Source: Minisyncoccia bacterium
Lineage (GTDB): Bacteria > Patescibacteriota > Minisyncoccia > 2-02-FULL-40-12 > IGHO2-01-FULL-4-A
Length of the DNA stretch: 64,000 nt
Assembly (NCBI GenBank): GCA_050015375.1
Contig: JBEKBN010000006.1
Coordinates: 454-64,453, forward strand
Reading direction: 5' to 3'
Positions 12,312 to 60,049 of the stretch are shown here, one piece after another. A program made the translations under genes and the position numbers. Under the pieces are notes generated by a model that saw only the letters and a list, made by a program, of their open reading frames with translations, had not been told where the DNA came from and did no database searches. Every line of letters starts with the position of its first letter. Within the stretch, counting starts at the first letter, position 1.

Positions 12312-12875
12312 ATGTCTTGGCAAATCTGTAAGCCGAATTCTGTTCCCCCACTTTTTGAGTTGCCCCAAAAGTGGGGGAGGCGATCATTTATCTGGTCCCT
12401 CGGTTACCCTCGGGATCTAGCGTCTCTTCCCCCACTTTTTAAGTTGCCCTAAAAGTGGGGGACACGGACTTGCACCGGGCAGGGTTTAGCGCGCATCCAT
12501 GTCGCCATGGAGCGGTCCCGTTCGGGGCCTTTTCACCCGTGATCCGCTTGCGCGGACTCGGAATAGTTTCTGTGCCACTTTCCCTGAATTTTGATAAATA
12601 ACTTTTGTCTTAAGAACAAAAACTATCCATCTTATATTCGGTGGCCATTAGCCACTGCCCTGCTTACGCAATCACCAACTGCTAATCTCTAATCTCAAAT
12701 AAAACCATTGGCGATCTTAGTTAACAATTAATGATTGCGTAAGCGGTGTTCGGACTTTCCTCCCTAAAACATTTTGCTTTCGCAAAATGTTCGGGCGATC
12801 AATTCGCAAAGCGAATTGATTTAGCCCCAAATCCAATAAGAATTCGTAGAGTAATCACCCGATTTACCAGGACTT
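12312..12875 (-). ncRNA. rnpB: RNase P RNA (bacterial type A-like) with an extended helix and twin hairpin insertions
   Basis: Reverse complement carries GGGAGGAAAGUCCGAAC (P4 5'), CAGGGCAG, AGUGGCACAGAAAC, CGCGCAAGCGGAUCACGGGUGAAAAGG, CUAAACCCUGCCCGGUGCAAG and ACAGAAUUCGGCUUACAG (J/P4 3'). These align with E. coli M1 RNA. The 5' and 3' ends are approximate. Confidence 0.8.
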
Positions 12876-15591: not shown

Positions 15592-16833
15592 TTATTCGTA
15601 TCGCAGCGCCTCGATCGGGCTTTTCCTTGCCGCTGTCCGGGCGGGGATGATGCCGAAGGCGAAACCGATGGCCGTTGAAACCGTCACCCCCAAGATCGCG
15701 CCGGTGTAAGAAAAAATGAACGGGAAATTGATGCCCAGAAAATTATTAACAATGAAAACGGTCGCAATATTGAAAAGCGTTCCCAAGATTATACCCACCA
15801 AACCGCCGGTGAAGGTCAGCATCACCGCCTCGATCAAAAATTGAAGAAGAATGTCGTTGTTAGTAGCGCCGACGGCTTTCCGAAGGCCGATCTCTCGCGT
15901 CCGTTCGGTCACTGAGACGAACATGATGTTCATGATGCCGACTCCGCCGACGATAAGTGAAATAGCGGCGATGGACGACAAAAGCAAAGTCAAAACGGTG
16001 GTAATCGTGCCGATAGTGTTGACCAGATCAGCTTGGGTTTGGATGTAGAAATCATCTTTAACCGGGTCGGTGATGTTGTGGTCGGCCCGAAGCACGGCCG
16101 TGGCGTCGGAGATGACATTACTGATGGTGTCGGTCGAACTGGCCTGGATCATGACCCGCTGGAAATAATTGATGCCCAAAATATATTCCTGGGCCGTGGA
16201 ATATGGCGTCAAAATGGCCTCGTCAAAATTTATAATGGATGACGAACCCTTGGGCGCGACGACACCGATGATTCGCAATGACTTGTCCTTTATTTTTATT
16301 TTCTCGCCGATGGGACTTGACAGGCCAAATAATTTTTGGGCGACGGTTTGACCGATAACGGCTACAGCATTTTTGTCGGCGACATCTTCCGCCGTGAACA
16401 TCGCTCCCTCGCCGATACTGATATTAAAAAGGGCGGCCATATTTTCATCACCGCCAAGAAGCGTTGCGCTGTAAACCTCCGGGCCGTAGCTGGCGACGCC
16501 GGGGCCGGTAACCATAGCTTCAACCATGACGGCATCGGGAACATTGCTGGTTTTTTTCAAAGCGTCGATATCCCTTTGTTTTATCGAATCGGTCAGCAAA
16601 CTTCCGGCAAAACCGGACGGGCCGCTGGGCTGGCGGCCGGGCAGAATGTAAATATTGTTCGGACCCAAGCCCTGGATCTGGCCGACGATAAGTTGCTGGG
16701 CGCTTTGGCCGATGGACATTACTAAAATTATCGAAGTGATGCCGATGACAATACCCAAAATCGTCAACGCCGAACGCGACTTGTGGCTTGAAAGCCCGAT
16801 GAAAGACATTTTGACGGTATCTCTTAGTTGCAT
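15592..16833 (-). CDS. ABC transporter permease, MacB/FtsX-type
   Basis: 413 aa with an N-terminal TM, a large periplasmic domain and a C-terminal FtsX-like 3-TM bundle. Sits in an operon with an ATPase and an HlyD adaptor. Confidence 0.85.
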   Translation of the reverse strand: MQLRDTVKMSFIGLSSHKSRSALTILGIVIGITSIILVMSIGQSAQQLIVGQIQGLGPNNIYILPGRQPSGPSGFAGSLLTDSIKQRDIDALKKTSNVPDAVMVEAMVTGPGVASYGPEVYSATLLGGDENMAALFNISIGEGAMFTAEDVADKNAVAVIGQTVAQKLFGLSSPIGEKIKIKDKSLRIIGVVAPKGSSSIINFDEAILTPYSTAQEYILGINYFQRVMIQASSTDTISNVISDATAVLRADHNITDPVKDDFYIQTQADLVNTIGTITTVLTLLLSSIAAISLIVGGVGIMNIMFVSVTERTREIGLRKAVGATNNDILLQFLIEAVMLTFTGGLVGIILGTLFNIATVFIVNNFLGINFPFIFSYTGAILGVTVSTAIGFAFGIIPARTAARKSPIEALRYE

Positions 16834-19891: not shown

Positions 19892-20983
19892 GTGAAAATC
19901 GCATTGGTTCAGGACTATCTTGTCGAATACGGCGGGGCCGAGAGGGTTCTTCAGGCGCTTTGCGAAATTTTTCCGGAGGCGCCGATCTACACTTTACTTT
20001 ATGATGAGAAAGCCAGCGGCCGGGTTTTTCGCGACCGCGAGATCCACACCTCCTTTATCCAAAAGATTCCTTTCGCCCGGCGACACCACCGATTATTCGC
20101 GGCTTTGATGCCTTTGGCCATCGAACAATTCGATCTGTCGGAATTTGATTTTGTTTTATCGAACTCGGCTTCCTTCGGCAAGGGCGTCATCACCAAACCC
20201 AAAACCACCCACATCAACTACTGCATGACCCCGACAAGATTTCTTTGGGACGACAGTCATCGTTTTATTGATGAGTTCAAATTGCCTTGGCTGATCAGAA
20301 AAATGACACCAGCCGTCATCGCTTATCTTCGGATCTGGGACAAAGAGGCCGCCTTGCGGGTGGACGAATTCGTCGCTATTTCCAACCATGTAAAAACCCG
20401 GATCGCCAAATATTATCAGCGCGACGCGAAAGTCATCACTCCGCCGATAGATGTCAGCAAATATCATATAAGCCCCGAAGTTGACGAATATTTTTTAATG
20501 GTCGGCCGCTTAGTTGCCTACAAACGCTTTGACCTGGCGATCCAGGTTTTCAACGCCATCGGCAAACCATTGAAGATCGTCGGCGATGGGCCGGAGCGAT
20601 ATCGGCTTGAAAAAATGGCCAAAAAAAATATCGAATTTCTCGGTCTTGTCTCCGATGATAAATTGCCCGGACTCTACAGCCGCGCTCAAGCGGTGATTTT
20701 CCCCCAGGAAGAGGATTTCGGTTTGGTGCCGCTGGAAGCGATGGCTTCGGGCCGGCCGGTCATCGCGTATCGCGCCGGCGGGGCGCTGGAAACGGTCATT
20801 GATGGCCGGACTGGAATATTTTTTGACGAGCAAACGGAAATCTCGATGGCTTTGGCCATCAGCAGATATTACGAAACCAAATTCAATCCCAACGTTATCC
20901 GGGCCCACGCTTTGGATTTCGACAAATCCATCTTCAAGGAGAAAATTCTCAAATTGCTTGCCCCCACACTCAATCGCGATTGA
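19892..20983 (+). CDS. family 4 (group 1) glycosyltransferase
   Basis: GTG start. GT-B fold with C-terminal motif FPQEEDFGLVPLEAMASGRPVIAYRAGG. The stop codon is supplied by a palindromic element. Confidence 0.85.
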   Translation: MKIALVQDYLVEYGGAERVLQALCEIFPEAPIYTLLYDEKASGRVFRDREIHTSFIQKIPFARRHHRLFAALMPLAIEQFDLSEFDFVLSNSASFGKGVITKPKTTHINYCMTPTRFLWDDSHRFIDEFKLPWLIRKMTPAVIAYLRIWDKEAALRVDEFVAISNHVKTRIAKYYQRDAKVITPPIDVSKYHISPEVDEYFLMVGRLVAYKRFDLAIQVFNAIGKPLKIVGDGPERYRLEKMAKKNIEFLGLVSDDKLPGLYSRAQAVIFPQEEDFGLVPLEAMASGRPVIAYRAGGALETVIDGRTGIFFDEQTEISMALAISRYYETKFNPNVIRAHALDFDKSIFKEKILKLLAPTLNRD

Positions 20984-20992
20984 GTGTGGGGG
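20961..20992. repeat. palindromic element CCCCCACACTCA-ATCGCGAT-TGAGTGTGGGGG (copy 1 of 5) at the GT4 gene 3' end
   Basis: Perfect 12-bp arms. The TGA of the right arm serves as the gene's stop codon. Family copies are at 25056, 55616, 58240 and 60021. Confidence 0.75.
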
Positions 20993-23630: not shown

Positions 23631-25460
23631 ATGCAAAACATCCGCAATTTTTGTATAATTGCTCACATAGACCATGGCAAAAGCACCTTAGCCGACCGGC
23701 TTTTAGAATTGACGGGCACAATTGAAAAGCGCAAAATGCACGAACAATTTCTGGACCAGATGGAATTGGAGCGTGAAAGAGGGATTACCATAAAACTCCA
23801 ACCCGTCCGCATGCAATACGGCGAATATATTTTGAATTTAATAGATACGCCGGGCCATGTGGATTTCACCTACGAAGTTTCTCGTTCGCTGGCGGCGGTG
23901 GAGGGTGCGATTTTACTTGTGGATGCCGCCAAAGGCGTTCAAGCCCAGACACTGGCCAATTTGCATTTGGCGCAAAGACAGAATTTGGTCATTATTCCGG
24001 TCATCAACAAAATTGATCTACCCAATGCCAGAGTGGCCGAAGCCGAAGAAGAAATTTCCAATTTGCTTGCCGTTGAACCGGACGAAATTATCAAGATTTC
24101 CGCCAAGACCGGTGAAGGCGTGGAGAAAGTTCTTGAAGCGGTTGTCGAAAAAATTCCCCCGCCATCTACTCACTACTCACTACCAACTACCAACTATCCT
24201 CGCGCCCTGATTTTTGATTCCGCTTTTGACGCTTACAAAGGCGTTGTCGCTTATGTCAGGATTTTTGACGGCAACTTCCGGGCCGGAGACAAAATTAAAC
24301 TTTTCGCTTCCAAAGCCGAAGCCGAGATAATCGAAGTTGGTCAGTTTAAACCCGCCTTGAGCAAAACCGATTCTATCGGCGAAGGTGAGATCGGCTATAT
24401 CGCCACCGGTTTGAAAAATCCCGGCGATGTCCGCGTTGGTGATACGGTTTTCTCTACAAACTATAAACCACAAACTACAAACTTTTCACCCCTTCCCGGC
24501 TACAAAGAACCGATGCCGGTGGTTTTCGCCAGTTTTTTTCCGGAAAAAGGGGAAGATTATGATCTGCTGAAAGACGCGCTGGGAAAACTGAAATTGACCG
24601 ATGCCTCGCTGACTTATGAACCGGAATCTTCACCAGCCCTCGGCCGGGGTTTTCGCCTTGGCTTTCTGGGTATGCTCCACACCGAGATCATCAGTGAGCG
24701 GTTGCGCCGGGAATTCAAATTGTCGCTGATAATTTCCTCGCCGTCGGTGGAATATCACATTTTGAAAAAGAACGGCCAAGAAATTCCCATCCGTTCGGCA
24801 TCAGAGATGCCCAATCCGAGTTATATTGATAAAATTTTCGAACCGACGGTTGTGCTGGAATTGTTGAGCCCATCTGAATATCTCGGTTCATTGATGAAAC
24901 TTCTTTCCGAAATGCGAAGCTCTTATCTAGCCACTGATTATTTGACCAAGGAAATCGTGATTTTAAAATACAAAGTCCCGCTGACTGAAATTGTGACCGA
25001 TTTTTATGACAAACTGAAAAGCGTCAGTTCCGGTTACGCTTCGATGAGTTATTCACCCCCACACTCATTAGATGAGTGTGGGGGCAAGCAGGATGGCTAT
25101 GAGGAATCTGATCTGGTTCGGCTGGATATTTTGGTGGCCGGGGATTTGGTTGAACCGTTTTCGAGAATGGTTCCGAGATCGCGCGTTCATGACGAAGGCA
25201 AGAGAATTGTCGAGAAGTTGAAGAAAATAATTCCGCGGCAATGGTTCGCGGTGGCGATCCAAGCGGCCATCGGCGGGAAAATAATCGCTCGGGAAACCAT
25301 CAGCGCTTTGCGAAAAGATGTTACCGGTTATCTCTACGGCGGGGATATTACCCGCAAGAAAAAATTATTGGAGAAGCAAAAGAGGGGGAAGGCGAGGATG
25401 AAAGAGGAAGGCAAGGTGAATATTCCGCAGAATGTGTTTCTGGAGATGCTGAAAAAGTAG
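23631..25460 (+). CDS. lepA: elongation factor 4 (LepA)
   Basis: IRNFCIIAHIDHGKSTLADRLL...DTPGHVDF and a C-terminus matching E. coli LepA. Contains three in-frame repeat insertions. Confidence 0.92.
   Translation: MQNIRNFCIIAHIDHGKSTLADRLLELTGTIEKRKMHEQFLDQMELERERGITIKLQPVRMQYGEYILNLIDTPGHVDFTYEVSRSLAAVEGAILLVDAAKGVQAQTLANLHLAQRQNLVIIPVINKIDLPNARVAEAEEEISNLLAVEPDEIIKISAKTGEGVEKVLEAVVEKIPPPSTHYSLPTTNYPRALIFDSAFDAYKGVVAYVRIFDGNFRAGDKIKLFASKAEAEIIEVGQFKPALSKTDSIGEGEIGYIATGLKNPGDVRVGDTVFSTNYKPQTTNFSPLPGYKEPMPVVFASFFPEKGEDYDLLKDALGKLKLTDASLTYEPESSPALGRGFRLGFLGMLHTEIISERLRREFKLSLIISSPSVEYHILKKNGQEIPIRSASEMPNPSYIDKIFEPTVVLELLSPSEYLGSLMKLLSEMRSSYLATDYLTKEIVILKYKVPLTEIVTDFYDKLKSVSSGYASMSYSPPHSLDECGGKQDGYEESDLVRLDILVAGDLVEPFSRMVPRSRVHDEGKRIVEKLKKIIPRQWFAVAIQAAIGGKIIARETISALRKDVTGYLYGGDITRKKKLLEKQKRGKARMKEEGKVNIPQNVFLEMLKK
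24166..24200. repeat. heptamer tract (CTACTCA x2, CTACCAA x2, CTATCCT) in frame inside lepA, encoding STHYSLPTTNYP
   Basis: Five 7-nt units with a CTA anchor. Absent from E. coli LepA at the equivalent PAPQGDPDAPLQ position. Confidence 0.65.
24454..24488. repeat. heptamer tract (CTACAAA/CTATAAA/CCACAAA/CTACAAA) in frame inside lepA, encoding TNYKPQTTNF
   Basis: Same unit as the tpiA tract. About 7 extra residues relative to E. coli LepA. Confidence 0.65.
25056..25084. repeat. palindromic element CCCCCACACTCA-TTAGA-TGAGTGTGGGGG (copy 2) inserted in frame in lepA, encoding SPPHSLDECGG
   Basis: Perfect 12-bp arms with a 5-nt loop. Adds about 11 residues relative to E. coli LepA between GYAS and SDLV. 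Confidence 0.75.
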
Positions 25461-25645
25461 CGAGCCCCTCACTTCCCGACCTGGGCTCACCGGATTACTT
25501 TCCGGGGACTTCGCATCGCCCAGCGAGCGATTTGCTCATCCGGTTGTCGGTTGCCGTCGCTGACTTGATCACAAGTCAGACCGTGCCGACGGCACCGACA
25601 ACGGCCCCTGAAAGCAATCCAGTTCGCAGAAAGTGAGGGGCTCGC
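25460..25645. repeat. GC-rich 186-bp element bounded by a perfect 14-bp inverted repeat (GCGAGCCCCTCACT / AGTGAGGGGCTCGC); candidate structured RNA or MITE
   Basis: Starts at the lepA stop codon. The interior has nested hairpins (CTGACTTG-ATCA-CAAGTCAG, GTGCCGACGGCAC). GC content is far above the local average. Confidence 0.5.
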
Positions 25646-30038: not shown

Positions 30039-30109
30039 GCGGGATTAGTACAGTGGCAGTACAATTGCTTCCCAAGCAATGGACGCGAGTTCGATTCTCG
30101 TATCCCGCT
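30039..30109 (+). tRNA. tRNA-Gly (anticodon CCC)
   Basis: Acceptor GCGGGAT/ATCCCGC, D-arm GTACAGTGGCAGTAC, anticodon loop TTCCCAA, T-loop TTCGATT. CCA is not encoded. Confidence 0.85.
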
Positions 30110-30269
30110 CAAAAATCAAAAAATTTTTTGATTTTTGAGCGGGTAAGCGAGCAAATTTATTGCTCGCGTCAAGATGAGAACGCCGGAGCGATGTTTCGCG
30201 AGTGATTGGCGAGCGAAACCGCGAGGCGGTGGCTAGACCGAGCCGCCGGAAGGCGGCGAGAGTCGAAGC

Positions 30270-31473: not shown

Positions 31474-31517
31474 ATAACATGTAGATATTGACCATATGGT
31501 CAATATCTACATGTTAT
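31474..31517. promoter_or_regulatory. 44-bp perfect palindrome (ATAACATGTAGATATTGACCAT|ATGGTCAATATCTACATGTTAT), putative operator
   Basis: Perfect dyad 30 bp upstream of the PaaX-like gene, in a divergent region shared with arsR. A near-copy is at 32111-32138. Confidence 0.6.
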
Positions 31518-31546
31518 TGTTTTATAGTTTCTGTTATTATGTATTC

Positions 31547-32113
31547 ATGAAGGCGATAAGAAGAGGAACCCTAGCTTTTAAAATTTTAAAAGGCATTGGT
31601 CTAACGGGTTTGTTTTTAATAAGCATGTCGAACCCGCGTTTTGGGGTTCAGTTATTGACGGGATTTAAAGAATATAACAAAAGGGAGAAACAAAAATTCA
31701 GAGAATCGTTATATTATTTGAAAAAAAGAGGATTGGTAAAAATCATAGAAAACAGTAGCGGCGGCTTTACGGCCAAATTGTCAAAGACCGGAGAAAAAAT
31801 GTTGGAATCTATCGACATTGATTGTCTTGAATTGAAAAATAAGGAATTTGATGGAAAATGGCGCGTGGTTATCTTTGATGTTCCGGTCAGATTGAATATT
31901 AAAAGACACGCTTTTACGGAACGACTGAAAACTCTGGGTTTTATCATGGTTCAAAGAAGTGTATGGATTTGTCCGTTTAGGTGCAGAAAAGAACTGGCGA
32001 TGTTAACCCAATTTTACGAAATTGAGAAATACGTCACATATTTAGAAACATCTTTTGTGGATAACGAAGAAGCGTGGAAAAAAGAGTTTTCACTAATCAA
32101 ACTGGTGGCTTAG
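31547..32113 (+). CDS. PaaX-like regulator: N-terminal winged helix plus a C-terminal Cas2-fold domain
   Basis: SLYYLKKRGLVKIIE (wHTH), then GKWRVVIFDVPVRLNIKRHAFTERLKTLGFIMVQRSVWICPF, which resembles the Cas2/PaaX_C motif (YDV..KRR...L...G.R.Q.SV). Confidence 0.5.
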   Translation: MKAIRRGTLAFKILKGIGLTGLFLISMSNPRFGVQLLTGFKEYNKREKQKFRESLYYLKKRGLVKIIENSSGGFTAKLSKTGEKMLESIDIDCLELKNKEFDGKWRVVIFDVPVRLNIKRHAFTERLKTLGFIMVQRSVWICPFRCRKELAMLTQFYEIEKYVTYLETSFVDNEEAWKKEFSLIKLVA

Positions 32114-32138
32114 ATATTCACCATATGGTCAATATCTA
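32111..32138. promoter_or_regulatory. imperfect 28-bp palindrome (TAGATATTCACCAT|ATGGTCAATATCTA), second copy of the operator-like dyad
   Basis: One central mismatch relative to the 31474 dyad. Overlaps the stop codon of the PaaX-like gene. Confidence 0.5.
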
Positions 32139-33666: not shown

Positions 33667-34536
33667 ATGAAAATAATTTTCAGGATTCTTTATTATTTGT
33701 TTTTCACGGCGGTTATTGTCGTTGTTTTGGCGTTGCTGGTGTCATTATTTCCGATTTTCGGGGGATTGAAGTTTTTCATTGTTCGATCGGGCTCGATGGC
33801 ACCGGCGATCAAAACCGGAAGCGTAGTGATGGTCAAACCCGAAGCCGATTACAAAATCGGGGATATAATATCGTTCAGTTTGGATGAAAAAAATGAAATA
33901 CCCACGACTCACCGCATCAAGGAAATAAAAATCAAAAACGGAATTCAGAAATTTATCACTCAAGGCGACGCCAACAACGCGCCGGACATGGTTGAAATTG
34001 AAAAAGAAAATATTATCGGCAAAGTGATTCTGACCGTTCCTTTAGCCGGATATTTGGTTGCAGTCGCTCAAAAACCGAGCGGTTATCTGGCGCTGATATT
34101 GATTCCGGCGTTCGTGATAATCGGCGACGAAATCTCGAAGATCATCAGGGAAACGAGAAAAAAACGTCAAGAGAAAAGCCAATCAAGCAACAAATCAATC
34201 CCATTCTATATTTTTTGTTTGGGTCTGGGACTTGCCGAGCTTTTACTCCCATCAATTCGCGCAAATTCGTTTTTCACGGCGACTGAAACCGGTGGGTTGA
34301 TGATAGTTGCCGGTTCGTGGTCACACGCCAAGACATCGGGCATCGCTATCGTGGCTCAAGAACCGACTTCTGATTCCGAGATTGACGTTCAAATCGCGAG
34401 TGGCGCTTCGGGAATCGAGTCAAATAAGGATGAACTAGCCCCAGAGCCGGCGGCGCCTCCGGCGCCGCCGGCCCCCGAAATCCCGCCGGCCGAAACCACC
34501 GTGGCGAGTCCTTCCGCCGAAATCATTCATGATTAA
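33667..34536 (+). CDS. sipW: signal peptidase I, SipW/archaeal type (S26B), with a Pro/Ala-rich C-terminal extension
   Basis: FIVRSGSMAPAIKTGSVVMV (SGSMxP), catalytic His in PTTHRI, and a second TM. The C-terminus is PEPAAPPAPPAPEIPPAE. Confidence 0.8.
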   Translation: MKIIFRILYYLFFTAVIVVVLALLVSLFPIFGGLKFFIVRSGSMAPAIKTGSVVMVKPEADYKIGDIISFSLDEKNEIPTTHRIKEIKIKNGIQKFITQGDANNAPDMVEIEKENIIGKVILTVPLAGYLVAVAQKPSGYLALILIPAFVIIGDEISKIIRETRKKRQEKSQSSNKSIPFYIFCLGLGLAELLLPSIRANSFFTATETGGLMIVAGSWSHAKTSGIAIVAQEPTSDSEIDVQIASGASGIESNKDELAPEPAAPPAPPAPEIPPAETTVASPSAEIIHD

Positions 34537-35410
34537 AACAAAAGTAAAACCAATTTTGACGGCAATTATTCTGTTTTTCGTTTTTTCGACCATTTTTTTG
34601 TCCGTCGTCAGTGTTCAAGCCGCCGATTTTCAGGTTACCTTCCAAAATCATCCGCTTTTCAAAAACGCCAATTTCATTCCCGGCGATTCGATCACTCGTT
34701 GGATCAAGGTCGTCAACAACAGCGGCCAAAATCAAACCGTCTTGATAAAAAGCGACAATGCCAGCGACCCCAATCACATGGACGGCGCAATGAATCTGAC
34801 CATCAAACAAGGGACCGCCACGCTTTATCAGAATTCTTTCGCTGATTTTTTGAGCGGGGACTTGATCGCTCTTTCTGAACTTGATAGCGGAAAAAGCGCT
34901 CAATATAATCTGACGGTTACATTCGATTTGTCCGCTGATGATCTTTATCAAAACAAGACGCTTGGTTTTAATATTCTTGTCGGTTTTGAACCGACCGGCT
35001 ACGAACAAAGCGATACCGGCACAACTTTTCTAACTGACAATCCCGATAATAAAGTCGAGGTTGTAACAATGACGCCGACGCCTTCGATAATTTCGTCGTC
35101 GCCGACGCCGACTCCGTCGGCGTCGGCGACCCCATCTCCCCGGCTAAAACCCAGCGTGAGTCCAATTTTACTTCGATCATCGCCAGCGCCCGTAATCGTT
35201 CACAATATTTCTTCCGCTACCACGTTATCCGCCAATTCACTTGCAACCCCGAACCTCCCGCCGTCTCTGACGACCGCCAATCCCGTCCGCCAACCCCAAC
35301 TCGCCCTCATTCTCGGCGTTTCCCCGACCCGCTGGCTGATCTATATTTTCATTTCCCTATTTGTCGGTATCGTTTCTTATGTAATTTCAAAAAAGTGGTT
35401 TAAAAATTAA
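34529..35410 (+). CDS. secreted surface protein with a Pro/Thr/Ser linker and a C-terminal TM anchor
   Basis: Signal peptide, a beta-rich domain, a PTPS-rich linker and the C-terminal anchor IYIFISLFVGIVSYVISKKWFKN. The anchor-coding segment is duplicated at 36193-36262. Confidence 0.5.
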   Translation: MIKTKVKPILTAIILFFVFSTIFLSVVSVQAADFQVTFQNHPLFKNANFIPGDSITRWIKVVNNSGQNQTVLIKSDNASDPNHMDGAMNLTIKQGTATLYQNSFADFLSGDLIALSELDSGKSAQYNLTVTFDLSADDLYQNKTLGFNILVGFEPTGYEQSDTGTTFLTDNPDNKVEVVTMTPTPSIISSSPTPTPSASATPSPRLKPSVSPILLRSSPAPVIVHNISSATTLSANSLATPNLPPSLTTANPVRQPQLALILGVSPTRWLIYIFISLFVGIVSYVISKKWFKN

Positions 35411-55256: not shown

Positions 55257-56543
55257 ATGACCGTTTCTGATATAATTAAACAAATGGAGGAAAAAGAAAA
55301 TGAATTGAAATTCCCCAACGGGTTTTTGTGGGGGACGGCCACGTCAAGCTATCAGATAGAAGGTGGAATAAATAATTGCGACTGGGCCCAAGCGAATCGC
55401 GGTCCCTCGACAAGTTCAGGACATCAGATTCCTGATGCTGGGCGCGCTTGCGATAGTTACAATAAATACGAGGAGGATTTTGATATTGCCAAATCGCTTG
55501 GCCAGAACGCCCACCGTTTCTCTATAGAATGGGCGCGGATCGAGCCGGAAGAGGGAAAATTCGACGAGAAAGAAATCGAGCATTATAAAAAAGTGCTGGA
55601 CGCCTTGCGAACTCGCCCCCACACTCAAGATTTGAGTGTGGGGGGAACGGGATTGGAACCATTCGTGACCCTTTGGCATTTCACGCTTCCGGTTTGGTTC
55701 GCGAAAATGGGCGGTTTCGAAAATCCGAAATCACCGGAAATATTTTCCCGATATTGCGAATTTGTCGTTGGCAAAATGGGGGATAGAGTTCACCCTGTTA
55801 AATCCGGCGAAGCCGGTGCCGCGGAGCGGCAATTTAACAGGGTAAAATTCTGGGTAACTATAAACGAACCGATGGTTTATGCCTCGAATGGTTACCGAAA
55901 AGGTCAATGGCCGCCGTTTGAAAAAAATATTTTCAGGTTCATGAAGGTTATCAAAAATCTAATCATGTCGCACAATCTAGCATATGACAAAATCAAGAAC
56001 ATTGATCCTTCGGCTCAGATCGGCATCGCTAAAAATAATATAAATTTTGAGGCAAATTGGAACCCAATCAATCGCCTCTTGTCAAGCTTTCTGAATTTTT
56101 TCTGGAATCGCAGATTTTTGAATAAAATTTCACAGGATTTCATCGGTTTGAATTATTATTTCCACAAAAAGTTCGGGGATAGGGCGAAGTATCCGAAATC
56201 CGACATGGGTTGGGATATTTATCCGAAAGGAATTTATAATTTGCTGATGGAACTGAAAAAATATGGTAAACCGGTTTACATCACCGAAAACGGATTGGCG
56301 GACAAAGAAGACAAACAACGCGCCGATTTCATCCGTGAACATTTGAAATGGGTTTCGAGAGCGATCCGGGATGGCTCTGACTGCCGCGGATATTTTTATT
56401 GGTCGCTTCTGGATAATTTTGAGTGGGCGGAGGGTTACAAACAAAAATTCGGTTTGGTGGAAATTAATTTTGAAACAATGGAAAGAAAGATCAGGAATTC
56501 AGCGTGGGAATTTGCAAAAATTTGTAAAAATAACGAAATATGA
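55257..56543 (+). CDS. glycoside hydrolase family 1 (beta-glucosidase-like) carrying two in-frame palindromic insertions
   Basis: FLWGTATSSYQIEGG, TINEP (acid/base) and ITENGLA (nucleophile). Carries insertions RTRPHTQDLSVGG and HPVKSGEAGAAERQFNRV relative to canonical GH1. Confidence 0.88.
   Translation: MTVSDIIKQMEEKENELKFPNGFLWGTATSSYQIEGGINNCDWAQANRGPSTSSGHQIPDAGRACDSYNKYEEDFDIAKSLGQNAHRFSIEWARIEPEEGKFDEKEIEHYKKVLDALRTRPHTQDLSVGGTGLEPFVTLWHFTLPVWFAKMGGFENPKSPEIFSRYCEFVVGKMGDRVHPVKSGEAGAAERQFNRVKFWVTINEPMVYASNGYRKGQWPPFEKNIFRFMKVIKNLIMSHNLAYDKIKNIDPSAQIGIAKNNINFEANWNPINRLLSSFLNFFWNRRFLNKISQDFIGLNYYFHKKFGDRAKYPKSDMGWDIYPKGIYNLLMELKKYGKPVYITENGLADKEDKQRADFIREHLKWVSRAIRDGSDCRGYFYWSLLDNFEWAEGYKQKFGLVEINFETMERKIRNSAWEFAKICKNNEI
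55616..55644. repeat. palindromic element CCCCCACACTCA-AGATT-TGAGTGTGGGGG (copy 3), in frame in GH1
   Basis: Perfect 12-bp arms. Encodes RPHTQDLSVGG, inserted before the conserved GxEPFVTLxHxxLP block. Confidence 0.75.
55793..55842. repeat. second, distinct GC-rich palindromic insertion (CCCTGTTAAAT-28 nt-ATTTAACAGGG), in frame in GH1
   Basis: 11-bp perfect arms. The loop itself holds two hairpins (CCGGC-GAA-GCCGG and GCCGC-GGA-GCGGC). Encodes about 16 extra residues between GDRV and KFWVTINEP. Confidence 0.65.
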
Positions 56544-57427
56544 TCTGGATCCTTCTGGCAATTCTGTCCCAATTCATCTCCGCCGGCGTTTACATGGCCG
56601 ACAAGTATCTTGTTGGACCCAAAGCCATCGGCCGGCCGGTGGTTTACGCCATCTATGTCTGCTTGCTTTCGGGTTTCGTTTTGGTTTTATTGCCTTTTGG
56701 CGTGGTTTTGCCGCTGACCTGGCCGCTAATTGCGCTTTGTCTGGGGATCACGGTTGCTTTCACGACTTCCCTATTATTTCTTTATTCCGCTCTTAAAACT
56801 TCTGATGTTTCGGATGTGGCGCCGGTCATGGGCGCGATCTCGGCCGTGGCCACATTGGCTTTCGGACTGTATTTTTTGGATTCAATGCTGCCCAGATTAT
56901 TTTTCATCGGCTTTCCGCTTTTGATATTCGGGACTTTTCTGATGTCGCGTTTTCGGTTTAATAAGAAATCCTCCTTTTATGTTATCGCCGCCGGAATTCT
57001 TTTCGGACTTTCATCGATTTTAATAAAAATATTGTTCGGAGAAACCTCATTTCTTAACGCGTTTTTCTGGTCGCGGATGACGAATGTTTTCGGCGCGATA
57101 ATTTTACTTTTGTGGCCGGCGAATTTCAAAGCCGTGTTCAGCAATGTCAAAAGTTCGACCGGCGGAACGAAAATTTTGGTCGTCGGCAACAAAACGCTGG
57201 CCGGTATCGCCTATCTCTTATCGCTGGTGGCAATAAAACTCGGCAATGTTACCGTCGTCAACTCATTGGCCGGTTTTGAATTCGTTTTTATTTTGCTTCT
57301 GGCTTTTATTTTCACTTATAAATTTCCGAAATATTTTCAAGAGGCCGTTCACAACAAAAACGACCGGCTGAAAAAGATCTGGGCTTCGGGTTTGATAATA
57401 ATCGGGTTCGTGATCATGTTCCTATGA
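56540..57427 (+). CDS. hypothetical polytopic membrane protein (about 10 TM)
   Basis: 295 aa and strongly hydrophobic. No motif. Confidence 0.5.
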   Translation: MIWILLAILSQFISAGVYMADKYLVGPKAIGRPVVYAIYVCLLSGFVLVLLPFGVVLPLTWPLIALCLGITVAFTTSLLFLYSALKTSDVSDVAPVMGAISAVATLAFGLYFLDSMLPRLFFIGFPLLIFGTFLMSRFRFNKKSSFYVIAAGILFGLSSILIKILFGETSFLNAFFWSRMTNVFGAIILLLWPANFKAVFSNVKSSTGGTKILVVGNKTLAGIAYLLSLVAIKLGNVTVVNSLAGFEFVFILLLAFIFTYKFPKYFQEAVHNKNDRLKKIWASGLIIIGFVIMFL

Positions 57428-58509
57428 AGAAGCACAAAAAATATTTTTCAATTCCCATTATCCTTTTCTTGATCCTTTTGGTTTTAACCTTGGCTTGGAA
57501 TTTGCTTTCCATCAGGCCGGTTCCCGAAAAAGTAAATTACGGCGTTTCGTTCAGCGTTTTTCATTCCAACGAACTCAATCTGGATTGGAAAAAAACATAT
57601 TTGGCGATCTTAGACGATCTTAAGGTCAGGAACTTGCGGCTTACCGCTCATTGGCCGCTGACCGAGCCGGCCGACGGCAAATACGATTTCTCAGAATTGG
57701 ATTTTCAGATAAACGAAGCCGATAAACGCGGCGCGACCTATATTCTGGCCGTCGGCCGGCGCCTGCCCGGCTGGCCGGAATGCCATGTGCCGGATTGGGT
57801 TATGAATCAAGAATCACAAATCACGAATCAAGGTGAAAAAACTGATTTTGAGAACCAAAAGTTATTGGAATATATTCAGACGACCGTTGAGCGTTACAAA
57901 AATTCCCCCGGTCTGAAATATTGGCAAGTCGAGAATGAACCGTTCCTAGGATTTTTCGGCCGTTCGAGCTGCCAATTGACCGACGAGAATTTTTTCAAAC
58001 AGGAGATCGCTCTTGTCCATAAACTCGATCCGACCCATCCGGTTCTGGCGACCGACAGCGGCGAGTTCGGCTATTGGTATCAGGCCTACCGCGACGGTGA
58101 TGTTTTCGGCACCTCCTTGTATCTGTATGTTTGGTGGCGGGCGCTTGGCATCGGCCCCTTGCGTTATCCCATCGGGCCGTCGTTTTTCCGAGTGAAGCAA
58201 AATGTGGTTGATTTTATCGGTTGTGTCTTGGGCGATTCACCCTCACACTCAATTTTTGAGTGTGAGGGCAAGCCGACAATTCTCATTGAACTGGAAGCCG
58301 AGCCCTGGCTTTTAACACCGATCGTTGACGCGCCGATGGCGACTCTCCTTGACCGGATGGGGATTGATAAATTCGAAACCATGATCCAAACCGCCAAAGA
58401 AGCCGGTTTTGGCGACCAATATCTCTGGGGCGCCGAGTGGTGGTATTGGATGGAACAAAATGGCCATCCGGAATTTTGGCAGGCGGCGAAGCAACTTTTT
58501 AACCAATAA
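57424..58509 (+). CDS. glycoside hydrolase, clan GH-A (GH5/GH113-like)
   Basis: Signal/TM N-terminus, then YWQVENEPF (acid/base NEP) and LIELEAEPW (nucleophile Glu). The family is not resolved. Confidence 0.55.
   Translation: MKKHKKYFSIPIILFLILLVLTLAWNLLSIRPVPEKVNYGVSFSVFHSNELNLDWKKTYLAILDDLKVRNLRLTAHWPLTEPADGKYDFSELDFQINEADKRGATYILAVGRRLPGWPECHVPDWVMNQESQITNQGEKTDFENQKLLEYIQTTVERYKNSPGLKYWQVENEPFLGFFGRSSCQLTDENFFKQEIALVHKLDPTHPVLATDSGEFGYWYQAYRDGDVFGTSLYLYVWWRALGIGPLRYPIGPSFFRVKQNVVDFIGCVLGDSPSHSIFECEGKPTILIELEAEPWLLTPIVDAPMATLLDRMGIDKFETMIQTAKEAGFGDQYLWGAEWWYWMEQNGHPEFWQAAKQLFNQ
58240..58268. repeat. palindromic element variant CCCTCACACTCA-ATTTT-TGAGTGTGAGGG (copy 4), in frame in the GH-A hydrolase gene
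   Basis: Both arms carry a compensatory change (C to T paired with G to A), so pairing is preserved. Encodes SPSHSIFECEGKP. Confidence 0.75.
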
Positions 58510-58607
58510 TCCGTAATGTATATTAGGGGTCTTTAAACTTGCAAAAACATTTAAATATTTTCCGCTAAAGGTAGATTTGCCCGCGGCGGAAAAAATATAA
58601 ACATGAA

Positions 58608-58685
58608 TCCCGTTAGAGAGCGTGATTTAATTCAACATTTTAGACCGGTTGAATTACACGATTTTAACGGGACTCTCTAACGGGA
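58608..58685. repeat. 78-bp inverted-repeat element, copy C (TCCCGTTAGAGAG ... CTCTCTAACGGGA), abutting the htrA ATG
   Basis: 13-bp terminal IRs related to copies A and B, with an internal TTTTAACGGG half-site. Ends ...TCTAACGGG ATG. Confidence 0.7.
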
Positions 58686-59956
58686 TGAATAAAAAAGAAA
58701 TTTCCAGGTTTTTCAGAAGACATTTTATGCTGACCACGATCGTGGCTTGTCTGATCGTCTCGGCACTGGCCGGCGGAATCGTCGGCTATTACAGCGTCGA
58801 GGGCGCGCTTGGCCAGAAACCGGCTTTGCCGAATTTTGTCAAGCAACTGATCAATCCTCAAGCCGGCAATTCAACACCCGCTTTTACCAACGAACAATCT
58901 CAGGTCATCAGCGTCGTCAAAAGCGCCTCACCGGCGGTGGTCAGTATCGTGGCTTCAAAAGATCTGACCACGGTTGAGCAGAACGGCTACAATCCGTTCC
59001 AGGATTTTTGCAGCGATCCGTTCTTCAAACAATTTTTCGGCGACCAGTGCGATTCGGCAACGCCGGCGCCGAAATCCACGACCCAGAAACAACAAGTCGC
59101 GGCCGGCACCGGATTTTTGATAACTTCCGACGGTTTGATCCTGACCAACAAGCATGTCGTTGACATTTCGGGCGCCGATTTCACGGCCATCACCAGCGAC
59201 GGCAAAAGTTATCCGGCCAAGATCTTGGCCACCGATCCGGTTTTGGATGTGGCCTTGGTCAAAATTTCCGGGACTAATTTCCCAACCTTGCCTTTGGCCG
59301 ATTCGAGCCAAATTCAGATCGGTCAGACGGTCATCGCCATCGGCAACGCTTTGGGCCAATTCTCGAACACGGTTTCAAAAGGCGTAATTTCCGGCCTTTC
59401 CCGTTCGATTACCGCCGGAGACAATGCCGGTTCTTCGGAAACGCTAAACTCCGTTATCCAAACCGATGCCGCCATCAACCCGGGTAATTCCGGCGGACCG
59501 CTTTTGGATCTGAGCGGCAATGTCATTGGCATCAACACCGCCATTGCCCAAGGCGCCCAAAATATCGGTTTTGCCATTCCTATCAATCAAGCCAAAAAGG
59601 ATATCGGCCAGGTTAAAACCAGTGGCAAGATCAGCACCGCATACCTTGGCATTCGCTACATCGCCATTGACGACACGGTCAAACAGGAAAATAATCTGAC
59701 GGTGAATTACGGCGCGCTGGTAGTCAGAGGCGACACTCAGGATCAGGTGGCGGTCATGCCCGGCTCGCCGGCCGATATCGCCGGCATCAAAGAGAACGAC
59801 ATTATTCTCGAGGTTAACGGAACCAAAATAGACCAGAACAACGACCTGGCGACATTGCTTCAAAAATACAATGTCGGCCAAACGATCCAGCTGAAAGTTT
59901 TAAGCCAAGGAAAAGAAAAAACCGTTTCGGTGAAACTGGTGGAGAGACCTCAATGA
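58685..59956 (+). CDS. htrA: HtrA/DegP-family serine protease with a PDZ domain
   Basis: Trypsin-like core (TNKHVV...D...GNSGGPLLDLSGNVIGINTA) plus a C-terminal PDZ. I placed the start at the ATG at 58685, not the track's 58649, which is inside the IR element. Confidence 0.85.
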   Translation: MNKKEISRFFRRHFMLTTIVACLIVSALAGGIVGYYSVEGALGQKPALPNFVKQLINPQAGNSTPAFTNEQSQVISVVKSASPAVVSIVASKDLTTVEQNGYNPFQDFCSDPFFKQFFGDQCDSATPAPKSTTQKQQVAAGTGFLITSDGLILTNKHVVDISGADFTAITSDGKSYPAKILATDPVLDVALVKISGTNFPTLPLADSSQIQIGQTVIAIGNALGQFSNTVSKGVISGLSRSITAGDNAGSSETLNSVIQTDAAINPGNSGGPLLDLSGNVIGINTAIAQGAQNIGFAIPINQAKKDIGQVKTSGKISTAYLGIRYIAIDDTVKQENNLTVNYGALVVRGDTQDQVAVMPGSPADIAGIKENDIILEVNGTKIDQNNDLATLLQKYNVGQTIQLKVLSQGKEKTVSVKLVERPQ

Positions 59957-60020: not shown

Positions 60021-60049
60021 CCCCCACACTCATGCATGAGAACGGGGGC
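60021..60049. repeat. degenerate intergenic copy (copy 5) of the CCCCCACACTCA palindromic element
   Basis: CCCCCACACTCATGCATGAGAACGGGGG has a left arm identical to the family and a decayed right arm. Confidence 0.5.

Follow-up and report, generated by a model that had tools for sequence, protein, structure and literature searches.

The Rickettsia palindromic elements (RPE-1 to RPE-10), of about 100-150 bp, lie in-frame in dozens of unrelated genes, where they are read in one frame and give surface peptides (Ogata et al. 2000, 2002, as summarised in PMC10969869). In the account given by that summary, copies also occur between genes, no transposase is known and the elements are regarded as selfish DNA (PMC10969869). 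Here we describe a smaller nested palindrome from a Minisyncoccia bacterium of the Patescibacteriota (assembly GCA_050015375.1, contig JBEKBN010000006.1, a 64,000-nucleotide stretch from position 454 to 64,453, referred to below as the window), which lies within a GH1 beta-glucosidase gene and very probably represents a copy of a mobile, selfish hairpin element that is translated in-frame with its hosts. Like the RPE, it is dispersed as palindromes in-frame in unrelated, functional housekeeping genes with one preferred frame, is predicted to encode surface peptides, has intergenic copies and no known transposase, and palindromes of other families in the window have entered an RNA gene. Unlike the RPE, it adds 48-54 nt and is thus three times smaller, occurs in Patescibacteria and not in Alphaproteobacteria, keeps a defined Y-shaped two-hairpin core across subfamilies with unrelated cargo, and has a recognisable insertion context (Val-Lys codons, RTRAA). 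The element is therefore RPE-like in its dispersal and in-frame placement, not in its size (48-58 nt) or lineage, and is set beside the RPE by description only.

Several other systems resemble the element in part. Repetitive extragenic palindromes (REP) lie outside genes and carry a conserved GTAG or CGTC head (PMC3733652), whereas the element is mostly intragenic, ends in TTYA...TRAA and has no such head. REP and bacterial interspersed mosaic elements (BIME) are, moreover, single hairpins of 20-40 nt, in contrast to a three-way junction of 52-58 nt here. What the element has in common with REP/BIME and their REP-associated tyrosine transposases (RAYT) are short GC-rich hairpins, the absence of target duplication, an orientation bias and, in the mechanism proposed below, the handling of single-stranded DNA (ssDNA) in trans by a Y1 HUH enzyme. 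Transposition in the IS200/IS605 family, for which IS608 is the paradigm, proceeds by ssDNA 'peel and paste' at a 4-5-nt target, without target duplication, with recognition of hairpins and strand specificity. The element is like the non-autonomous members of this family, the palindrome-associated transposable elements (PATE), in its short specific target and in the lack of target-site duplication at two empty sites, five copies being ambiguous; unlike them, it is one closed palindrome with terminal inverted repeats instead of having two different subterminal hairpins as ends, no TnpA is linked to it, and its target is deduced from flanks and the two empty sites. [quoted passage not shown] The element is, like these, small, non-autonomous and bounded by terminal inverted repeats, but MITEs have target-site duplications and usually an identifiable parent insertion sequence (IS), neither of which was found here. 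Coding palindromes are also described from the mitochondria of Nematomorpha (PMC6649704). Mitochondrial coding palindromes are likewise GC-rich hairpin inserts in coding genes of a lower-GC genome, though they are organellar and unrelated in sequence. Yeast mitochondrial GC clusters and Magnusiomyces byps are further GC-rich coding inserts, the byps being skipped by the ribosome, while the frame constraints seen here indicate translation. A literature search returned no description of intragenic palindromic elements or MITEs in Patescibacteria, also known as the candidate phyla radiation (CPR), though an earlier description elsewhere is possible.

A nested palindrome within the GH1 gene

The host gene occupies positions 55257-56543 of the forward strand in the ORF list and encodes a beta-glucosidase of 428 aa, recognised by Pfam PF00232 (E = 1e-85) in three stretches and with 1vff as its best match in the PDB (E = 7e-80). 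The protein agrees at 100% identity with an NCBI entry that comes from a Minisyncoccia metagenome-assembled genome. The element itself is a 58-nt unit at 55789-55846 on the same strand, delimited by its inverted repeat, by a covariance model and by alignment with 21 other copies. Its 15-nt arms, TTCACCCTGTTAAAT (55789-55803) and ATTTAACAGGGTAAA (55832-55846), pair with a single mismatch and contain the perfect 11-nt cores CCCTGTTAAAT (55793-55803) and ATTTAACAGGG (55832-55842), while the 28 nt between them are divided into hairpin 1, CCGGC-GAA-GCCGG (55804-55816), and hairpin 2, TGCCGC-GGA-GCGGCA (55817-55831), a long variant as judged from the alignment of copies. The structure between 55793 and 55842 is thus exactly that described in an earlier note on this DNA, with 11-nt arms around 28 nt that hold two GC hairpins. 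Judged from the empty sites and from reconstructed junctions, the right arm probably owes its final 2-4 nt (TAAA) to the Val-Lys codons of the host. With a GC content of 62%, and of 82% in the inner 28 nt, the element stands out from the GH1 gene (42-43%) and the window (46%); the contrast pointed out before is thus real, although the flanks called AT-rich at the time are so only moderately.

As RNA, the element folds into a three-way junction without unpaired junction bases (-32.9 kcal/mol, z = -6.3), a fold matched by none of 200 shuffled sequences, and as ssDNA both strands reach -23.5 kcal/mol (z = -7.5 and -8.2). An ordinary lineage-specific GH1 loop whose palindromy is a coincidence of codon choice might be considered at this point, as about 0.6 inverted repeats of 11 nt with a spacer of up to 40 nt are expected by chance per 64 kb and the arm sequence has no second occurrence in the 64-kb window. 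What makes the palindrome significant is consequently the nesting of its hairpins, together with the family of copies in other sequences. However, the two hairpins fill the spacer without remainder, no shuffled sequence attains such a fold, covariation backs it and the same 52-58-nt sequence recurs in some 19 unrelated genes; the metagenome matches presented below refute this explanation, which we consider to have a negligible likelihood. No Rfam covariance model matches the element at its gathering score, permissive thresholds yielding chance miRNA-hairpin matches far below threshold only, and a role as terminator or promoter was rejected, there being no T-tract and no match at the element.

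Codon alignment with an empty orthologue (P0003/L140) defines a net in-frame insertion of 18 codons at 55791-55844, H179-V196 (HPVKSGEAGAAERQFNRV), which can equally be read as V178-R195. The empty site reads GGG GAT AAA GCG AAA TTT TGG, to which the window adds 54 nt. The insert lies just upstream of the catalytic NEP motif as had been noted, with 18 residues in place of the approximately 16 estimated then. The segment is missing from solved GH1 structures and from the nearest GH1 relatives (P0002, P0003, P0005, P0013), which in an alignment of 40 close homologues run uninterrupted through the site as GD[RK][VA]K[FY]W; stretches encoded at the insert include HPVKSGEAGAAERQFNR, VHPVKSGEAGAAER and QFNRVK. 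In an AlphaFold2 model of the protein with the insert (predicted template modelling score, pTM, 0.84), the barrel is confident and the insert forms a low-confidence surface loop with a predicted local distance difference test (pLDDT) value of about 54. The model places it between helix 159-174 and strand 198-203, which carries the catalytic N203-E204-P205, and thus in the alpha3-beta4 loop. In the TIM-barrel topology this loop lies on the face opposite the catalytic strand ends, and we infer that the inserted loop faces away from the active site. The encoded peptide is accordingly modelled, for the GH1 protein, on the surface and as compatible with the fold.

Copies in unrelated genes and the insertion junction

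Other copies were sought in public metagenomes by a single scan with a degenerate 40-bit DNA pattern, blind to frame and strand, which was built from three GH1 copies (the window's and those of the distant homologues P0006 and P0021, which carry a homologous insert at the same junction). The scan yielded 56 loci; about 26 are false positives, mostly a conserved PlsX motif (LVKSGEADACVSAGNTG) without palindrome, and approximately 30 contigs hold the nested palindrome in 25 distinct sequences. Its host genes, about 19 in number and unrelated to one another, include those for RNA polymerase beta-prime (RpoC), DNA polymerase I (PolA), LeuRS, an Ile/Val-type tRNA synthetase, tRNA-guanine transglycosylase (TGT), TatD, a pseudouridine synthase, RuvA, a subunit of an oxidoreductase dependent on thiamine pyrophosphate (TPP), ATP synthase subunit a, glycosyltransferases, a Wzy-like protein, an SLT-domain protein and a pilin-like protein. 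The closest homologues of the element-bearing TGT come from Candidatus Moranbacteria, so that at least two CPR lineages are involved. The covariance model, R1, recovers further copies on contigs first caught through another copy (L117, L130, L124 and L138). The one match from a scan of viral contigs falls on the contig that also holds L129, a false positive without palindrome. The encoded peptide aligns over too short a length as a protein-database query, and a concatenated 76-aa query shared words with five candidates, none of which scored. Copies are thus found in other metagenomes and, besides the one in GH1, not in the 64-kb window; with about 19 unrelated host genes and relatives that lack the segment, the earlier description as a small mobile palindrome holds, whereas the acquisition may or may not be 'recent': the copy is structurally intact, yet protein identity to the nearest empty orthologue amounts to only about 74-77%.

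The conservation of the copies is that of a fold. Among 22 distinct copies, 94.9% of the cells hold standard pairs, a share that drops to 27-47% if the 3' partner is shifted by 1-3 columns. The arms, TTYACCCYGTYAAAT...ATTTRACRGGGTRAA across copies and 15 nt long, are paired in 93-100% of copies at positions 5-15 with 47-57, and pair 11-51 shows no mismatch, 13 copies having U-A and nine having C-G there. Helix 2, the stem of hairpin 1, is 99% paired and includes one double change from C-G to U-A. Hairpin 2 varies symmetrically in length, its commonest form being the 9-nt TGC-GRA-GCA, and in the long form all three pairs of the extension helix are changed on both sides. Where the same arms enclose unrelated inner sequence, six of eight variants still fold into the same gap-free three-way junction. 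In L084 and L096 a second, related palindrome is nested within the loop of hairpin 2, and the two copies on L117 have a rare end, GGGGTTAA, in common.

The point of insertion can be read from two empty sites. Among the 40 closest TGT homologues, 39 read FGKSG directly followed by VKLTEEG, and L126 alone has 16 additional residues; the empty DNA is AGC GGG GTC AAA TTG, to which L126 adds 48 nt. In both GH1 and TGT the net insertion is 4 nt short of the conserved palindrome and falls between a Val and a Lys codon, a clean insertion without target duplication relative to the orthologues. All copies in frame 0 are bounded as R-TT[...]AA-N, the base before TT being a purine in 19 of 19. If the left tetranucleotide is kept as host sequence, in-frame stops arise in four of the 19 reconstructed sites and V-Q appears where orthologues have V-K, while keeping the right tetranucleotide, or splitting between TT and AA, produces no stops and restores V-K.

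These junctions bear on whether the element might be a conventional MITE, that is, a deletion derivative of an IS with a DDE-type transposase, which would use its terminal inverted repeats to move by cut-and-paste and would leave a short target-site duplication (TA, TTAA or TNNA). Its small size and 15-nt terminal inverted repeats (93% paired across copies) would suit such an origin, as would the invariable RTT...AAN boundaries, which are compatible with a TTAA-like target, and identical tetranucleotides on both sides of five copies (L110, L087, L113, the second L117 copy and the window element at 58604). Against this, most flanking tetranucleotides are not identical (TTCA...TGAA, for instance), and the independent variation of positions 3 and 59 shows that the target is not regularly duplicated; the copies lack a consistent direct repeat at their flanks, and none is present at the GH1 and TGT empty sites, where the net insertion, 4 nt shorter than the palindrome, leaves nothing duplicated beyond it. 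The internal Y-shaped fold is also conserved and not the ends alone, and no DDE transposase was found among the 50 of 63 window ORFs scanned. A MITE of this kind therefore appears improbable.

For GH1 alone, the distribution could also reflect one ancestral insertion that descended vertically and was repeatedly and precisely deleted, leaving the window gene, P0006 and P0021. All three copies lie at the identical junction, L001 and L002 have a GCCGAT change in common, the window and L002 share the long hairpin 2, the extra Pro in the GQGSG[AV]PKFW relatives of P0006 may be the footprint of a deletion, and palindromes are prone to deletion in general. However, a tree from a masked alignment places the three element-bearing genes in three separate clades, the clade-mates of the window gene being cleanly empty and without a footprint, so that some eight or more precise losses would have to be assumed. 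The same junction has furthermore been used independently by other palindromes: P0053 carries one of the CCCGTTAGAG type and P0015 one of a different family, and at the TGT junction P0123 has a subfamily with GAAT arms in place of that of L126. P0024 has a further insert, palindromic or not, at the GH1 junction. The insert is also far more similar between lineages than the synonymous sites of the gene, with 83% identity between the window and L001 (83% at third positions) against 66% (43.5% at third positions) for the rest of the gene. We thus prefer a history in which elements entered a conserved Val-Lys target within a tolerant loop more than once to one old insertion with many precise losses, which we regard as unlikely, if a serious contender.

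Reading frame and the mode of movement

The copies within genes are constrained in their frame. A single sense frame, [HYN]PVKSG[EK]AGA..QF[ND][GR]V, is used by 19 of 21 intragenic copies and in 17 of 19 distinct host genes, and the right ends of both copies in the +1 frame are TCAA or TTTA instead of TGAA or TAAA, by which the stop codon is gone. None of the 21 intragenic copies lies antisense in a long ORF, though the antisense frame is open. Variants that share the arms and are closed in all six frames are found between genes only, those in genes being the variants with an open frame. This pattern fits insertion anywhere, followed by the survival of coding-compatible copies in tolerant loops, and it argues against splicing or ribosomal bypass, by which the insert would be removed from the mRNA or skipped like the mitochondrial 'byp' of Magnusiomyces or the T4 gene 60 bypass. 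GC-rich coding palindromes in an AT-leaning genome do recall yeast mitochondrial GC clusters and byps, and the hairpin is stable; but the length of every intragenic copy is a multiple of three, with no stop and with a single frame in use, the ends of copies in another frame avoid a stop, and stop-containing variants are kept out of genes. A skipped segment would be under no such constraints, and an untranslated insert is very improbable.

A further explanation is that the element is a functional cis-acting hairpin of the mRNA, involved in ribosome pausing, RNase processing or transcript stabilisation and spread or kept for this function, with the peptide as a by-product. The strict sense orientation in genes despite the open antisense frame, the survival of the fold when the inner sequence is replaced, the third codon positions of the insert, far more conserved than those of the host gene, and the departures from pairing in the core stems (14 G-U against six A-C) all agree with a role as RNA. 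Yet the host genes have no function or pathway in common, the closest orthologues work without the element, one DNA strand folds as well as the other, relatives between genes are found in both orientations, there is neither an Rfam match nor a terminator-like tail, and the G-U excess is small and drawn from copies that are not independent. We therefore regard a function as RNA as quite improbable.

In our preferred explanation, the 58-nt unit belongs to a non-autonomous mobile DNA element that is dispersed in Patescibacteria, and its arms close a stem bearing two small hairpins to form a Y-shaped three-way junction on either strand. It inserted between the Val and Lys codons of GH1, adding 54 nt without a target-site duplication, and the host contributed about 4 nt of the palindrome (sense RTRAA). 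With the open and hydrophilic frame of this subfamily (HPVKSGEAGA..QFNRV), in-frame copies in tolerant surface loops would survive and be translated, whereas stop-containing relatives would persist between genes only. A single-strand hairpin intermediate would be handled in trans by a Y1 HUH transposase, RAYT-like or IS200/IS605-like, in a 'peel and paste' reaction at a short target. Mobility is indicated by the nested insertions, the different subfamilies at each junction, the end shared by both L117 copies and the conservation of the insert beyond synonymous sites. Mobilisation as an ssDNA hairpin is proposed because it fits the lack of target duplication, the short conserved flanking target, the conserved fold and the strict orientation, and the involvement of a Y1 HUH enzyme is put forward tentatively, at somewhat less than an even chance. 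The element is best seen as selfish DNA and not as an adaptation of GH1, the inserted loop being presumably functionless.

A candidate enzyme class is present in the clade: the related locus L146 (Yanofskybacteria, GCA_016185525.1) encodes a 228-aa Y1_Tnp protein near a GH1-EamA-GH42-HtrA block syntenic with that of the window. The best NCBIfam match of this protein is the REP-associated tyrosine transposase model, under the curated cut-off, and in the region 15820-16587 its gene has a copy of the palindrome ACTTTCTGACACC-G-GGTGTCAGAAAGT on either side and a third one in-frame within it. This arrangement, which parallels RAYT genes with their own flanking REP, means that RAYT/REP-type systems with in-frame intragenic copies exist in the clade. 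Farther along this locus lie three occurrences of another palindrome (CGTCATCGGATGTCCC/GGGACATCCGATGACG).

Several points weigh against the preferred explanation. The palindrome at L146 is unrelated in sequence to the GH1 element, and neither the window nor the element-bearing loci, which are fragments of genomes only (about 0.4 Mb), yielded a cognate RAYT; tblastn and a two-sequence profile (E <= 10) returned no Y1/HUH homologue from the same sequences, and Pfam detected no transposase domain in 50 of the 63 window ORFs, the remaining 13 lying mostly in the first 9 kb. R1 scores the GH1 copy at 72.3 bits (E = 2e-17) and gives no other strong match in the window, hence a single copy in these 64 kb. 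Neither the pattern nor R1 detects a copy in 1.26 Mb of GH1-anchored loci from species-representative genomes, mostly distant ones with mostly distant GH1 genes (at most 56% identity), which implies that the family is restricted to certain lineages; the taxon of the host is established for the GH1 and TGT contigs only. The five copies with identical flanks are ambiguous, being compatible with a 4-nt duplication of a TNNA target. The orientation bias could result from selection on the peptide rather than from a strand-specific mechanism, and the G-U excess, given its size and the dependence among copies, hints weakly at selection on the sense RNA.

On a larger scale, the element may belong to an undescribed superfamily of Patescibacteria with common TTYACCC...GGGTRAA arms and a swappable two-hairpin cargo, moved as ssDNA by a RAYT/IS200-like HUH enzyme in one orientation next to a TTYAY target. 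Its coding-compatible members would have colonised essential genes (RpoC, PolA, aminoacyl-tRNA synthetases), and, along with several other palindrome families of these genomes, the superfamily would be a major source of lineage-specific protein loops and of RNA expansions in the CPR, a proposal that we consider rather doubtful in this full form. A likely relative in the window is an 86-nt element with similar arms (TGAA-TCCCGTTAGAGAG...CTCTCTAACGGGA-TGAA) at 58604-58689 on the forward strand, which R1 matches in the arms only (15.8 bits, E = 0.08). It lies between the GH42-like and HtrA-like protease genes and abuts the start codon of the latter, folds as ssDNA at -21.9 kcal/mol (z = -7.6), and has stops in all six frames with no ORF spanning it. 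The direct repeat ATGAAT bounds this element, its right copy supplying the likely start of the protease (ATG at 58685). The arm type TCCCGTTAGAGAG/CTCTCTAACGGGA also encodes a peptide, PVRSLAH..GEA.SNG, at two positions in GH1 homologues, near the N-terminus in P0038, P0052 and P0081 and near the C-terminus in P0019.

Other palindromes of the window and significance

The GH1 gene holds a palindrome of another class, CCCCCACACTCA-loop-TGAGTGTGGGGG, from which the element is distinct in sequence, as had been stated in calling the latter a second class. Four to five copies of this other class are present in the window (20961-20992, 25056-25084, 55616-55644, 58240-58268 and 60021-60048), with 10 arm matches against 0.14 expected, and their hosts are the 3' end of a glycosyltransferase gene (20961), LepA (25056), GH1 (55616) and the GH42-like gene (58240). 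The LepA and GH42-like copies encode similar peptides, SPPHS..ECGGK and SPSHS..ECEGK, and two copies are preceded by ATTCA, which is also the left flank of the GH1 element. The gene order in which GH1 is embedded, with an EamA-like transporter, a GH42-like hydrolase and an HtrA-like protease (55257-59956 in the window), recurs in L002, L146, L147 and L148, several distant Patescibacteria contigs, and suggests a conserved sugar-utilisation cluster.

Palindromes are found outside protein-coding genes as well. The RNase P RNA gene (12313-12810, reverse strand) measures 498 nt, compared with 367 positions in the model, and has an expansion of 132 nt where the model has 10 nt; it contains two copies of the palindrome TCCCCCACTTTTT..AAAAGTGGGGGA (12344-12378 and 12428-12462), showing that palindromic insertions also reach a structural RNA gene. 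A perfect 44-nt palindrome, ATAACATGTAGATATTGACCAT joined to ATGGTCAATATCTACATGTTAT (31474-31517), and a shorter related one (32111-32138) bracket a gene with a PaaX-like domain (31496-32113) and look like putative operator sites for this regulator. A perfect AT-rich palindrome of 40 nt, CCCGCTCAAAAATCAAAAAATTTTTTGATTTTTGAGCGGG (30104-30143), begins within the 3' end of a tRNA gene (30039-30109), while a strong nested hairpin, GTTGTCGGTTGCCGTCGCTGACTTGATCACAAGTCAGAC...CGACGGCACCGACAAC (25541-25603), with -38.7 kcal/mol over 70 nt, lies just downstream of LepA. The ORF at 34529-35410, which has no Pfam match, includes a perfect 15-bp palindrome, GTCGCCGACGCCGAC-TCC-GTCGGCGTCGGCGAC (35098-35130). 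Outside the window, the TGT gene of L126 (4479-5747) has a second large insert (..SKSETRNSKQIPNSKSQIPNDTCHSERSEESRTIEVGAEKNEIPRQARNDSNPDRP..) that is absent from typical TGTs and is possibly a repeat-derived segment.

Intragenic selfish palindromes of the RPE kind have long been a textbook oddity of Rickettsia, and the element described here represents a smaller and sharper version in the ultra-small, reduced-genome Patescibacteria, located even in RpoC and PolA, which suggests that the phenomenon may recur in reduced genomes. Such elements would offer a mechanistic source for some of the unexplained protein and RNA insertions of the CPR, which complicate annotation, phylogeny and structure prediction. 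A Y-shaped hairpin of 48 nt with a defined junction and strict orientation would also be a compact substrate for finding the mobilising enzyme. The extra loop in GH1 should meanwhile be treated as a passenger and not as a determinant of specificity.

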